Source: a phage. Taken from it: 64,000 nt of DNA. Positions 54,312-63,245 of the stretch are shown here, one piece after another (position 1 is the first letter of the stretch; each line of letters begins with the position of its first letter). Made by a program: the position numbers and the translations under genes. The stretch is taken from the NCBI GenBank assembly GCA_017864995.1, contig GCA_017864995.1_4097.1, one strand, 5' to 3'. The notes beneath the pieces were generated by a model. The model was not told the origin of the DNA, did no database searches, and worked only from the letters and a program-made list of their open reading frames with translations.

Positions 54312-54381
54312 AATTCCCTCCTTTATTCTTTATACTATATTTAATCAAAAAGAAAAGCCAGTACTCTGTACTGGCACTATA
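54312..54381 (-). promoter_or_regulatory. conserved intergenic cassette (hairpin terminator + TATAAA box + SD)
   Basis: Minus-strand order: gccagtac-agag-tactggc, T-run, ttgattaaatatagtataaagaataaaggaggg, ATG. Confidence 0.6.
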
Positions 54382-55731
54382 TTACAACAAATGTATTTCT
54401 GTGAGTGTTTGATATGTTACACCGTTGTACACACCTCTCCAATATACCTTACCTTCAGTACTAACCACTAATAATCCATATGTTGTAAACCCAAGAGTAC
54501 CACCAACATACATAGCATCTTTGATTTTAATACCAATGTCTTCATATGTAAATGAAGCGACTGCTCCCGCTTGCCATGAAGGACTAGCATAGTAATCACT
54601 ATAAACACCATGTGCTTTATATATTGATGTTGTTCCGGGTTCAAAAATTACAGTTCCACAGTAGTTCATTCGTATTTTGGTACTGGATGAAGTTGGTACA
54701 TTTATACCTACATCATCTTTAATCCCTGTAGTTAGGACGTTAAAACCACCCGCTACACGGTTGACGTCATTCGCACCGATTAGAAACATACCAACGTTGT
54801 AGCCCATATAATACACACTACTTGTACCATTCCAGAAAGAAAAACCACCACCATTACCACAGCGATATAGTTGTGAATTTGAGCAGTACATCATGCCTTC
54901 GTTTGTTGCATCAAAATCATCTGCTGTTCCGATTACAGCCACTGTAGTCCACGTTTTAATCACTTGGTTTGTACTAGCTGGTTTTTGTATACCATATCGT
55001 ATATTATATCCCTTACCTACGATTGTACCATCTTCTAATTTGGCATAAAGTACAGGTCTATTACCAACAAAATACACATTATTATGTGACATGTCTATTG
55101 TGCATCTTAATGAAACTGCTTTTTGTGTCAATTGATTATCTTTAGTAAAAGAAGTAAAGTAGTAATCTGATGTGGAGTTGTTTATTAAACCTTGAATCGA
55201 CAAACCCATATACCAGATTTCACCATTAGTGTTCAATGCTGCCAAAATACAACTATATTTTGAAGTGTATGCTGGGGTTAATGATGTTGCTGGACCTTTA
55301 TCATATCCACCACAGAATACCATTTCCACAACTTCACCTACGTTAGTAAAATAAGAAGATACATTTATAAAACCATTTGTTATAAAAGGTGCTGTAGTTA
55401 TACTTGAATGTGTGAATATTCCATTTGCATATACACCACAAAAATGATATGAACCATCATTATCTTTAACTATTATTCCATTTGATAGTAGCCAAAAATT
55501 GTTTACATTTTTTCGTACTAATTCAATTCCTGTACCATTGGTTGGTGTTATACCAAAAGAAACATATTTTGTTTGACCAATACCATATAAATTTCCATTT
55601 GATGCTAATATTGCACCAAACCAATTACCACCACCATTCCTATCATGACCCATACCAATGGAGTCGAATTTCTTTACAGTTGGAACATCTACTGTATTCC
55701 CATAATCAAATAATCTAACAAAAGGTAACAT
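54382..55731 (-). CDS. RCC1-like repeat (beta-propeller) protein, paralog 3 (longest, 449 aa)
   Basis: Begins MLPFVRLFDYGN; no cassette of its own, only SD AAGGAGG 10 nt after the stop of the upstream gene. Confidence 0.8.
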   Translation of the reverse strand: MLPFVRLFDYGNTVDVPTVKKFDSIGMGHDRNGGGNWFGAILASNGNLYGIGQTKYVSFGITPTNGTGIELVRKNVNNFWLLSNGIIVKDNDGSYHFCGVYANGIFTHSSITTAPFITNGFINVSSYFTNVGEVVEMVFCGGYDKGPATSLTPAYTSKYSCILAALNTNGEIWYMGLSIQGLINNSTSDYYFTSFTKDNQLTQKAVSLRCTIDMSHNNVYFVGNRPVLYAKLEDGTIVGKGYNIRYGIQKPASTNQVIKTWTTVAVIGTADDFDATNEGMMYCSNSQLYRCGNGGGFSFWNGTSSVYYMGYNVGMFLIGANDVNRVAGGFNVLTTGIKDDVGINVPTSSSTKIRMNYCGTVIFEPGTTSIYKAHGVYSDYYASPSWQAGAVASFTYEDIGIKIKDAMYVGGTLGFTTYGLLVVSTEGKVYWRGVYNGVTYQTLTEIHLL

Positions 55732-55741
55732 ATATTCCTCC

Positions 55742-56921
55742 TTAAACTTGTGGTAGTGGGTATTCTGTTAACGTCCATGTACCAACAACTGTTCCAATTG
55801 GTGACCTACCCGTGTAATATAATTTATTATCCGCATACACAAATAATGCACCATCATTGGCAGCAACCAATGAGGTATCTGGATCAAATACCAAAGAGGT
55901 TGGAAATTGTGTTTGAACGAAAATCGAAGCATTGTTAGTTGAGTTGATGCCGAGTTGCCCCTGGTTATTATACCCAGTACCAAAAATACGTTTCCCATTT
56001 CTATACAATATACCCCTTGAACTTTGTGAATGTAGTGGTATAAATTCAAAATCGGAAACATCAGTTAATTGTAAATAAGTACTTTGTGGAGTTAATGATG
56101 TCTTATTAGTATTGGTTGTAATTCCATTACCTAATTGTCCGCACTACTTGTGCTCCTACGCCATATAGCGGATAAGTACCATCTGAATAAAGAACTATAC
56201 CCAACATATTAGTATGTGAAAAAATATCAATGGGATATTTCCCAGGACCAAAATCATACTTTGTCCAACTCGTTAATGTAGCCGAAGCAGCACCAGTTAA
56301 CAACGTACCAGAAGTAGTTTTACCACATCGCCACGCAGTATTATCATTCTTAATTATCCAAGTTGGACTATTAAAAAATGAACTAACCTTTTTGACATTA
56401 ATATTAACCTGAGTTAATGATGTAAGCATTTCTGAAGTAGTACCCAACTCATATGTAGAATTGTCACCTATAGCATAAAGAACCCCACTATTTGTTAGTA
56501 CAAACATATTACGAGCATTAGGATATATCTCTTTAATATTATCTATATCAATACTAGAAAAATAAGAAGTACATTCAACAAATGTAGTACTTTGTACTGA
56601 ATTTGATGTACCTGTCCAAATATCCCAACCTGCATAATAAAATTTATTATCATTTGTCTGTACTAAACTAAATGAAGCATTCCTGGTGCACCAGAAATTT
56701 TTCACATTTTTCATTAAGAGAACCCAGTTGTTCTGTGTGGTAGTATTTCCAAGTCCGAAAATACCAGCGTTGTTTCCTCCTATACCCCACAAATCACCAT
56801 TCTTATACAGAAGCATTAATGTATTGTTGATAAACGCCGATGGTGCTTGCATCTTAATTACATTAGATTCATAAACAGGTTTAACATTCCCGTACTTAAC
56901 CATTCTTGCAAAAGGTAACAT
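55742..56921 (-). pseudogene. RCC1-like paralog 4 interrupted by a +1 frameshift
   Basis: N-terminal 264 aa (56127-56921, MLPFARMVKYGN) stops at 56127-56129; remainder continues one frame over (…CGQLGNGITTNT… to 55742); skipping one nt near 56140-56150 restores Y-G-V-G-A-Q-V-C-G-Q-L-G-N-G. Confidence 0.55.
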
Positions 56922-61925: not shown

Positions 61926-61995
61926 ATTTCCTCCTTTATTCATTATACTATATTTAATCAAAAAGAATGCCAGTACTTGAGTACTGGCATTGTGT
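61926..61995 (-). promoter_or_regulatory. conserved intergenic cassette
   Basis: Hairpin tgccagtac-ttga-gtactggca (61968-61989) plus conserved box. Confidence 0.6.
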
Positions 61996-63175
61996 TTATC
62001 TAAAAGGAACGCACTTTTTGAATTTATATATATATCCAGTCTCACCTTGTTCAGTAAAATACCCAGGGTTTCCAGTCCAGTATAAATCCTCACCTATACT
62101 AACTACCGATACTGAACCATTACCAATCGTACCAAACCACTCAACATGTGATAAGTCAACACTATCATCAAAGAATTCTATTGGTAATATTGAACCATAA
62201 TTCCCAGAGACTGCGTTGCGGCCTAAACCAGCACCATTAGAATTATATCCCTTACCATTCGTATTAATAATGTTAGTACTGGATTTTATTGCATTAACAT
62301 AGGATACTGGTGAAAGTTTATCGAATGAATTTGCTGTTATATCGGTATAGGGATTGGTAGTAAATGATGACCTTATTATACCAGTATTTTCAGAACCACC
62401 TATAGTCAACTGTGTGTTCCAACCAGCCGCCATTAAAGACAAAGCAGATGTACTACTTTGAACAATCAAACGTGTTACCCATCGTGTAGCTTGTACTGCA
62501 ATTACATGAGAACTACCAAGATTCAATGCAGTAAAACTAGTAATAGGCTTATTATCACCGGTTCCTAATTGATAAAAAGTATTCTCACCACAACGATAAT
62601 ATATACCATCTTTTATATAGTGAAAGTTTCTGCTCATTTCACTAGATGCAATTGCAGATACACTAGTGTCAATTAAGAGTGGAGATGTAATTGGTGCAGT
62701 TGCTGTACCCAATTCACTTGCACCATTCATGCCTATACCATATAACTGCCCGTCACTTGTTAGTATTAACATGGAATTGTTAGTTCCGGTTGATGATGTT
62801 ATTTTTATATCTTTTATTGAACTCGGAGAAATAAATCCAAAATATGATTCACAACGAGTCCATGTTGAAACCGAAGATGATATACCAAAAACTGAGTTAG
62901 TCCCACTATAGTACAATTCCCCTTGTTTTGTTCTAATTATAGTACAATATAGAGAACTCCAGAAATCATCAACACTATAAGGACATAAAACCCATCTATC
63001 CAAAAAAGATGAACCAGTAACTCCCATTTTTGCTGATTGGTTTCCGTCCACGCATATATAATGACCCATCACTGTATAATACGCTTATTGAATTTTCATC
63101 ACTATTAATTTTAACAACAGTATCTTTGACAGGGGCAATATTCCCATAATCAAATAATCTAACAAAAGGTAACAT
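61996..63175 (-). pseudogene. RCC1-like paralog 9 interrupted by a +1 frameshift near its 5' end
   Basis: Conserved start MLPFVRLFDYGN at 63173-63175 is in a frame that terminates after about 50 codons; main 358-aa ORF is one frame over, junction at ttatatatgcgtgg (about 63055). Confidence 0.55.
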
Positions 63176-63245
63176 ATATTCCTCCTTTATTCATTATACT
63201 ATATTTAATAAAAAAGAAAAGCCAGTACTGAGTACTGGCATTATG
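63176..63245 (-). promoter_or_regulatory. conserved intergenic cassette
   Basis: Hairpin gccagtac-tga-gtactggc (63221-63239) plus conserved box. Confidence 0.6.

Follow-up and report, generated by a model that had tools for sequence, protein, structure and literature searches.

The closest described counterparts of the element considered here are the PeSL (promoter-early stem-loop) and PmSL cassettes of T4-like phages (Arbiol et al. 2010, PMC2839356; Comeau et al. 2014, PMC4122927). A comparable spacer of about 70 bp recurs in a 64,000-nucleotide stretch of phage DNA (contig GCA_017864995.1_4097.1, hereafter the window), where it separates the genes of a minus-strand array of RCC1-like paralogs. 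As in PeSLs, the order is stem-loop terminator, promoter, Shine–Dalgarno (SD) sequence and start codon. Many near-identical copies are clustered in a plastic region (seven in the window; 12 boxes and 10 hairpins in the 17-kb array of the related phage EC22.5-2), and copies mark the edges of segments that have been inserted, deleted, replaced or displaced between close relatives. PeSLs have been proposed as substrates of homologous recombination, and the same is proposed for the array cassettes. Unlike a PeSL, the array cassette has no -35 element and is not an early sigma-70 promoter with boxes about 17 bp apart; its core, TAAATA-N3-TATAA, resembles a late promoter instead. The repeat also continues some 36–45 nt into coding sequence, and it is found in a Rak2-like jumbo phage, with no sequence homology to PeSLs. 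The array cassette works like a PeSL, yet it is not a strict PeSL, two defining features, the early promoter with a -35 box and the orphan cargo, being absent. No paper describing these cassettes in Asteriusvirus was found in the literature. They are new for this phage group, but they extend a known principle.

The spacer is probably a composite of terminator, promoter and ribosome-binding site that doubles as a recombination junction for the genes of RCC1-like virion proteins. In the proposed scheme each cassette would make the RCC1-like gene that it precedes a transcription unit of its own. A Rho-independent terminator would end the transcript of the upstream gene, a -35-less promoter would work as a variant of the T4-type late promoter read by a gp55-like late sigma factor, and a consensus SD would drive the start of translation. 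Since function would preserve a repeat of about 110 bp, the repeat would become portable homology, at which the recombination machinery of the phage could delete, insert, duplicate and reorder units, within a genome and between co-infecting relatives. The firing of the terminators and promoters in vivo, and the identity of the sigma factor that reads the box, are predictions from sequence.

The first-pass annotation had described seven minus-strand spacers that share one unit, and the description stands. Between 54312 and 63245 each spacer offers a hairpin with a T-run, a box and a strong SD, followed by ATG TTA CCT TTT; the spacers occupy exactly the range given for them, and shuffled sequences yielded no chance matches. 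The hairpin, GCCAGTAC-N3-4-GTACTGGC, occurs seven times in the window and not once in 100 dinucleotide-preserving shuffles. Six of these copies lie within 54357-63239, and the seventh, at 53081-53099 and so just outside the range of the spacers, closes the array; in the spacer before gene 56921 the hairpin has suffered a one-base deletion (GCCAGTACTTGATACTGGC, 56967-56985). Six copies of the box TATAGTATAATGAATAAAGGAGG were found at no more than one mismatch, all on the minus strand (0 expected), and the spacer before gene 56921 carries the variant TATAGTATAACAAATAAAAGGAGG. TAAATA-N3-TATAA is the invariant core of the box in the spacers. In every copy 5-7 nt separate the SD, AAGGAGG, from the ATG. 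The elements are as follows; the letters C, D and F denote array units, which are defined with the comparison of relatives below.

63176-63245, minus strand: cassette 1, between unit C and unit D; hairpin 63221-63239 (-12.4 kcal/mol), T-run, ATTAAATATAGTATAAT, GGAGG, ATG 63175.
61926-61995, minus strand: cassette 2; hairpin 61969-61988 with extended stem 61966-61991 (-16.2 kcal/mol), T-run, GATTAAATATAGTATAAT, SD, ATG 61925.
60695-60770, minus strand: cassette 3; hairpin 60742-60761 (-17.2 kcal/mol), T-run, box, SD, ATG 60694; the stem extends to 12-13 bp at 60738-60765 and is terminator-like on both strands.
59433-59503, minus strand: cassette 4; hairpin 59478-59497 (-16.1 kcal/mol), T-run, box, SD, ATG 59432.
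58211-58280, minus strand: cassette 5; hairpin 58255-58274 (-15.0 kcal/mol), T-run, box, SD, ATG 58210.
56922-57028, minus strand: cassette 6, degenerate; deleted hairpin 56967-56985 (-10.0 kcal/mol), box TATAGTATAACAAATAAAAGGAGG, ATG 56921.
54312-54381, minus strand: cassette 7; hairpin 54357-54375 (-12.4 kcal/mol), T-run, box with TATAAA for TATAAT, SD, ATG 54311.
53078-53102, both strands: array-end terminator with the same hairpin (GCCAGTACAATGTACTGGC), -15.1 kcal/mol, terminator-like on both strands and facing a convergent plus-strand gene.
55732-55767, minus strand: cassette-less junction; stop codon of the upstream fragment, then AAGGAGG and ATG 55731.

At the last of these junctions, which consists of an SD only, the gene at 55731 is presumably co-transcribed with its upstream neighbour, unit F. 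Upstream of the degenerate cassette 6, at 56990-57045 on the minus strand, a relic (tgaataaaggcaggaaatATG: the 3' part of a box, an SD and a start codon) is fused to the final 40 or so nucleotides of a B-like gene. Gene 57029-58210 has its stop codon within this relic, which the window shares with 121Q and phAPEC6 and which looks, from its sequence, like the footprint of a deletion.

The terminator half has the form of an intrinsic terminator, with a stable, GC-containing stem-loop directly before a U-rich tract on the transcribed strand. The stem measures 8-12 bp around an AGTAC/GTACT core, and the hairpins, each followed by a U-run, have folding energies of -10 to -17 kcal/mol (z-scores between -4 and -7 relative to shuffles). 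Terminator-like sites number 21 in the 51-64 kb region, where 5.4 would be expected. Among Asteriusvirus copies the stem hardly changes, while the loop varies freely. Hairpins further removed alter both sides of a stem pair together; they are found in the Munch cassettes, downstream of gene 19134-20291 and at 51190-51216. The last of these (AATCCAGTAC...GTACTGGATT), which belongs to a separate tenth paralog, departs from the array hairpin by compensated changes. Across 14 related hairpins, chosen by hand and including those of Salmonella phage Munch and the two other window terminators, compensatory changes affect five of ten stem pairs and 94% of cells pair, a result reached by none of 500 shuffles. 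Such changes fit selection on an RNA stem. A search of Rfam returned no family at its curated threshold; the best matches (E = 0.16-0.38) fall far under the gathering scores.

One of those two window terminators follows a gene that stands apart from the array. The gene, at 19134-20291 within the interval 19134-20400, lies on the minus strand amid the plus-strand early region and encodes a 385-aa virion structural protein (phrog_10468). It has the late-type element AATAAATAcgtTATAAT upstream and the terminator GCCACTACAATGTAGTGGC+TTTTCTTTT, a compensated variant of the RCC1 hairpin, downstream.

The repeat does not end at the start codon. Aligned on the ATG, seven array genes are 100% identical over nt 0-11 and about 78% identical over nt 12-35 (78-100% over nt 0-35 as a whole); beyond nt 48 identity drops to about 30-40%, near the background for the composition. 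Third codon positions follow the same course, 80% of them being identical in codons 1-12 and 35% in codons 13-40. This profile defines a conserved repeat of about 70 bp of spacer and some 36-45 bp of coding start, so that about 110 bp of near-identical DNA, including the part that encodes the MLPFxRMxxYGN motif, precede gene bodies that are no longer recognisably similar at the nucleotide level. ATGTTACCTTTT follows all seven spacers and also opens two cassette-less paralogs (55731 and 52345). All the paralogs share the N-terminus MLPF(x)R(x)(x)(x)Y(G/A)N, although the identity of the whole proteins is only 24-41%. Young, neutral duplicates were rejected as an account of the cassettes both because of this low identity of the gene bodies and because the cassette with its ATTAAATATAGTATAAT box also occurs in the Salmonella phages Munch and SE_PL.

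The architecture recalls the swapping of receptor-binding and decoration proteins. In both cases virion proteins are exchanged at a conserved 5' end, and here a conserved N-terminal M(L/I)PFxR..YGN, found across several phage groups, is joined to highly divergent bodies. The difference is that the conserved coding part amounts here to about 12 codons, and that the shared homology is mostly regulatory DNA.

The suggestion that the unit is a duplicating gene cassette has been upheld and can be taken further: units are exchanged, lost and reordered between phages exactly at the spacers. For the comparison, arrays were cut into units at the MLPF start codons and the gene bodies were clustered at >=78% nucleotide identity. 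Letters are orthogroups, x is a singleton and the slash marks a break before the separate paralog Q; unit C of the window was assigned from the alignment of the array with its relatives. The orders read as follows.

Window: C D H A B I F x P / Q.
121Q: E R C J A K x B I F L.
Ecwhy_1: E M S x C D H A N B x / Q.
PBECO4: G C J E A D B N P.
phAPEC6: T R C G x A K B I F L O.
SHEFM2K: M x G C J E A D B F O.
EC22.5-2: E M S T G C D H A N B K L O.

The order differs in all seven arrays through insertions, deletions and moves of units of about 1200 bp. Unit E is first in three phages and internal in two, unit D comes before H-A in three phages and after A in two, and unit G is found on either side of C. 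When the arrays were compared all against all by blastn, 160 of 165 homology blocks had a 5' end between 1 and 110 nt ahead of a start codon, the peak, at -80 to -61, falling on the hairpin. The 3' ends fell at +10 to +69 into the next gene in 162 of 170 cases, with a peak at +30 to +49. About 96% of the block ends thus fall in a cassette or in the opening 45 or so nucleotides of the gene after it. Over 59396-64000 the window is 99.4% identical to Ecwhy_1 and EC22.5-2, and going down the array this near-identity stops within cassette 4 and the opening codons of the gene that follows. For the early region of the window (1-51215) identity to that of EC22.5-2 is only 80-91%, and the contrast suggests a recent horizontal exchange of array segments. 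The block ends and the break in near-identity place the junctions within the repeat of about 110 bp. The cassettes thus appear to be recombination junctions; crossovers within them are deduced rather than individually seen.

Whatever the genome and the adjoining gene, cassettes are about 89-90% identical to one another; at orthologous junctions the figure rises to 96%. The uniformity therefore belongs to the gene pool as a whole and not to homogenisation within one genome. Gene conversion within genomes was considered as its main cause and is not supported, cassettes of the same genome being 0.902 identical and those of different genomes 0.892.

The absence of a -35 element at sigma-70 spacing, noted in the first-pass annotation, is confirmed: the sequence 17-18 bp upstream of TATAAT is TTTCTT or TTCTTT, which belongs to the T-run of the terminator. 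The scanner found a single sigma-70-like pairing, of CTGGCA in the 3' arm of the hairpin with TATAGT at 17-18 bp (score 9/12), and sigma-70-like sites in the region show no excess (65 found, 67.9 expected). A canonical sigma-70 promoter was rejected on these grounds. The sequence GGCTTTT has some likeness to the MotA box of T4 middle promoters, but it was dismissed by eye, since neither position nor sequence fits.

In 68 boxes drawn from the seven arrays, TAAATA and TATAA are both invariant. TATAAT is perfect in 58, and in the remaining ten its final T is replaced by C or A. The internal boxes read ATTAAATA, which matches TATAAATA, the gp55-read late promoter of T4, at six of eight positions. 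Like that promoter, the cassette offers an AT-rich element of the -10 type with no -35, and the two share the TAAATA core, a T-rich upstream flank and the distance to the ATG. They differ in the first two positions, in the internal boxes as in the array leaders (GGTAAATA).

In this lineage the late promoter is (T)ATAAATA. Exact TATAAATA lies 16-56 nt before the ATG of the genes for the phAPEC6 major head protein, scaffold, gp232, gp234, gp238 and gp242, and EC22.5-2 has 32 ATAAATA sites 10-60 nt upstream of genes, mostly in the structural region. These promoters often come directly after the T-run of a terminator, as before the virion-protein gene 19134-20291 of the window, and in several of them a TATA-like element follows after three to four nt. 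In the EC22.5-2 genome TATAAATA is avoided (14 observed, 68-98 expected); all xTAAATA 7-mers are depleted there, by 2.5- to 5-fold. The window has plus-strand TATAAATA sites at 37679 and 38921, each just upstream of a gene (37719 and 38950). The canonical late promoter was rejected as an exact match for the box, since TATAAATA and ATAAATA mark capsid and structural genes and are absent from the cassettes. A weight matrix built from the flanks of late promoters alone places the cassettes within the range of the 32 genuine sites, but that model carries little information.

The leaders of the arrays are instructive. In relatives the array leader is a divergent junction with plus-strand genes, so that a promoter is required there, and the box is present without the hairpin, as GGTAAATATGATATAAT; the leader of Ecwhy_1 is an exact TATAAATA. 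GG(G)TAAATA leads the RCC1-like gene or array in phages of Salmonella (Munch), Yersinia (fHe-Yen9-04), Cronobacter (GAP32), Xanthomonas (XbC2) and Erwinia (Kaldavass), and a TATAAT downstream of it is retained only in Asteriusvirus and Munch. RCC1-like proteins have been detected in phAPEC6 virions by mass spectrometry (PMC7247149, Table 1), and the GAP32 homologue, gp1, was likewise detected in virions according to the paper on phage CBB, which also reports a gp55-like protein (PMC5259590). The phAPEC6 protein gp237c is annotated as a 'sigma factor for late transcription'; the gene for the gp55-like sigma factor lies outside the window.

The late-type system that had been suggested for the box has indirect support. 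The invariant TAAATA core, the conserved GG(G)TAAATA leader of distant relatives and the detection of the proteins in virions favour it, and the box is nevertheless not the canonical (T)ATAAATA. On present sequence evidence it is about an even call that the box is a late-type variant promoter which overlaps a sigma-70 -10 hexamer (TATAAT). No transcript mapping for Asteriusvirus was found in the literature.

Several observations weigh against the proposed function of the cassettes. TTAAATA is neither enriched nor used upstream of genes outside the array (7 of 84); since the box reads ATTAAATA and not TATAAATA or ATAAATA, a late-type promoter would have to tolerate the mismatch. The internal boxes also lack the TG of an extended -10. 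The cargo is always one virion-associated family, that of the RCC1-like proteins, whereas PeSL cargo is unrelated and mostly consists of orphan genes. As to recombination, the position of block ends at cassettes follows in part from the conservation of the cassettes, and it localises the junctions to about 110 bp only. The halves of the cassette co-segregate only weakly with the adjacent unit (terminator half, 0.84 versus 0.82; promoter half, 0.90 versus 0.86), and the identity of cassettes within a genome hardly departs from that between genomes.

It is possible, though unlikely, that the box is read by host sigma-70 through the -10 alone or an extended -10, with TAAATA as no more than AT-rich context and with early or middle expression by the unmodified host polymerase. 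The TATAAT that is perfect in 58 of the 68 boxes and the TATAA that is present in all of them speak for such a promoter, as does a perfect TGaTATAAT in the leaders of Asteriusvirus and Munch. The same 20-mer, moreover, occurs in unrelated viral contigs, as the -10 region of promoters of the canonical TTGACA-N16-17 type. On the other side, the internal boxes have neither a -35 nor the TGn of an extended -10: they read TAG-TATAAT, and TGA-TATAAT occurs only in the array leaders of relatives, outside the window. T at -7 is the most critical position of the -10 element, and it is this base that the ten imperfect boxes replace. The leaders of GAP32, XbC2, Kaldavass and Yen9-04 lack TATAAT but retain GGGTAAATA. 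RCC1-like proteins are virion components, and the early promoters of this phage are of the full TTGACA-17/18-TATAAT kind.

The first-pass annotation also raised the possibility of a distinct promoter class, perhaps read by the phage's own sigma factor. As a class used throughout the genome it does not survive. The complete 351,992-bp genome of EC22.5-2 (OR845138.1) was rebuilt by joining eight loci, and all 12 boxes (<=4 mismatches in 26 nt) and all 10 hairpins in it lie at 8.0-24.6 kb, on the minus strand, within the RCC1 array. A search with the 17-nt core (<=2 mismatches) added one stray match, and a genome-wide class was rejected on this evidence. It is improbable, too, that the phage sigma factor encoded at 25066-26031 recognises TAAATATAGTATAAT through regions 2 and 3, without contacts to a -35, and so gives the RCC1 genes an expression window of their own. 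This sigma-70-family protein does combine Pfam regions 2 and 3 with no region 4 detectable even at E = 10, as might suit a box with no -35, and homologues are found in every Asteriusvirus and Rak2-like genome identified. Presence or absence of the factor is uninformative as a discriminator, every relative found having a homologue. A factor dedicated to the box would serve one gene family in a 352-kb genome. Its two alleles are only 59% identical, and yet the box is identical across phages of both allele groups; the allele of the window groups with those of Ecwhy_1, fEgEco12 and WPEC3. The leaders of distant relatives, furthermore, keep GGGTAAATA and not TATAAT, and other promoter classes, RpoD-like and TGAAACG plus -10, have been predicted in related phages (PMC5259590).

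A third alternative dispenses with internal promoters. The array would be a single operon driven from its leader, in which the hairpins act as leaky terminators, stabilisers of 3' ends or processing sites and the box and SD make up a translation-initiation region. Co-transcription evidently works, since some junctions in the same arrays and all those of fHe-Yen9-04 are cassette-less, and the strongest conservation extends into the SD and first codons. The hairpins and U-runs, in contrast, have canonical intrinsic-terminator form, and at the divergent leader, which must have a promoter, the box is kept without the hairpin. The invariant TAAATA-N3-TATAA stands 20-30 nt before the SD, a position to which, to our knowledge, no role in translation attaches. 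A single operon is accordingly judged quite doubtful. That the hairpin is instead a site-specific recombination site resembling integron attC, or a protein operator, with units moved by a dedicated recombinase, is hardly credible: its perfect 8-bp inverted-repeat arms are identical in dozens of copies within the genus and whole genes do behave as cassettes, but the U-run that always follows on the transcribed strand, compensatory stem changes that fit RNA structure better than a fixed protein-binding sequence, and block ends spread over about 110 bp including the coding start, not gathered at one point, all argue against it, although no search aimed at a recombinase or integrase gene was made.

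The distribution of the cassette is that of an accessory to one gene family. Every cassette precedes a gene of the MLPF/RCC1 family, and about 50 of the 63 MLPF genes in the window, 121Q, Ecwhy_1, PBECO4, phAPEC6 and SHEFM2K are preceded by one. A scan of IMG/VR with the exact 20-mer retrieved the array only in 121Q; eight single matches are unrelated, and some of these are -10 regions of the ordinary kind, within complete sigma-70 promoters. In Munch and SE_PL part of the junctions hold the same cassette, with compensated changes in the hairpin and ATTAAATATAGTATAAT or a close variant as the box, and others have overlapping stop and start codons. The junctions of fHe-Yen9-04 are exclusively tight and operon-like. 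This patchiness indicates that the cassette is an optional insulator, gained or lost in an older array, and not required for gene function.

A second and larger family of intergenic cassettes, with at least 13 copies and related groups of 7 and 3, occupies 31.8-50.2 kb of EC22.5-2. Its members consist of a sigma-70 promoter (CTTGCA-17-TATAAT), a stem-loop in the 5' untranslated region (GGGGAA..TTCCCC) and an SD, and they precede tandem small genes. The window stops just short of the corresponding region and contains no member of the family.

The window derives from an Asteriusvirus, a 121Q/PBECO4-like jumbo coliphage. A megablast search with 54000-64000 retrieved only Asteriusvirus jumbo coliphages (121Q, PBECO4, phAPEC6, Ecwhy_1 and others) and a few Salmonella relatives; coverage was patchy (28-53%) and the matching pieces were 82-99% identical. 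The G+C content of the window is 35%. Its bulk consists of short plus-strand genes with classical TTGACA-17/18-TATAAT promoters, and the minus-strand paralogs occupy the last 13 kb, where the last RCC1 gene of the array, 53106-54311, converges with the plus-strand gene 52423-53073. The genes are listed here.

53106-64000, minus strand: array of RCC1-like beta-propeller paralogs (Pfam WD40_RLD/RCC1) with the conserved MLPF N-terminus.
63246-64000, minus strand: array gene, partial, unit C.
61996-63175, minus strand: array gene, frameshifted, unit D.
60771-61925, 59504-60694, 58281-59432 and 57029-58210, minus strand: array genes.
55768-56921, minus strand: array gene, split.
54382-55731, minus strand: array gene with no Pfam RCC1 match.
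53106-54311, minus strand: array gene.
51221-52345, minus strand, in the region 51190-52420: separate tenth paralog; its upstream box has diverged (ATTAAATAAAGTATAAC), and a hairpin is absent there.

Of seven intact paralogs tested, six match Pfam WD40_RLD/RCC1, and the array paralogs also match PHROG 4219. The exception is the 449-aa product of 54382-55731, which has the MLPF N-terminus and aligns with the paralogs over roughly its first 100-200 residues; its C-terminal body may be different, to judge by the missing Pfam match. About 40 codons into the unit D gene, at GGACGGAAACC, the reading frame shifts. Ecwhy_1, PBECO4, SHEFM2K and EC22.5-2 have the same context, and the gene is split in the annotations of three of these phages as well. 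Read from these sequences, unit D is a conserved pseudogene or recoding site rather than the product of a sequencing error. The unit F gene, 55768-56921, has a stop at about 56127 that divides it into reading frames of 264 and 97 aa.

Variation in these arrays has been noticed before. Eleven RCC1-like genes were reported in phAPEC6, with tandem duplication as the proposed origin (PMC7247149), and the paper on phage fEgEco12 describes two 'chromosome condensation' proteins that differ strongly from their Ecwhy_1 counterparts. The cassettes supply a concrete mechanism for the reported growth of genomes by tandem paralog arrays that differ between near-identical isolates. The PeSL idea, in which regulatory cassettes are mobile, was tied to orphan genes in early regions of T4-like phages; with the array it also reaches a virion-protein family of Rak2-like jumbo phages. 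For annotation they provide a rule, since start codons, terminators and gene boundaries are called inconsistently in such arrays and several GenBank records miss the MLPF starts. For studies of transcription they offer a short, testable DNA element for late-type promoter specificity in Asteriusvirus.

A more ambitious reading, unlikely as it stands, makes the cassettes a system of diversification through recombination, with an integron-like effect, that acts on plug-and-play beta-propellers of the virion surface. Each module would comprise an insulating terminator, a promoter of a family-specific late-type subclass (xxTAAATA-N3-TATAA, distinct from (T)ATAAATA) and a docking N-terminus, a composition that is just as speculative. 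If the reading is correct, phage populations would continually reshuffle their virion propellers, for example the 'hairy' fibres of phAPEC6, and so track hosts or environments. The array is, in any case, a likely hot spot of variation in therapeutic jumbo coliphages.

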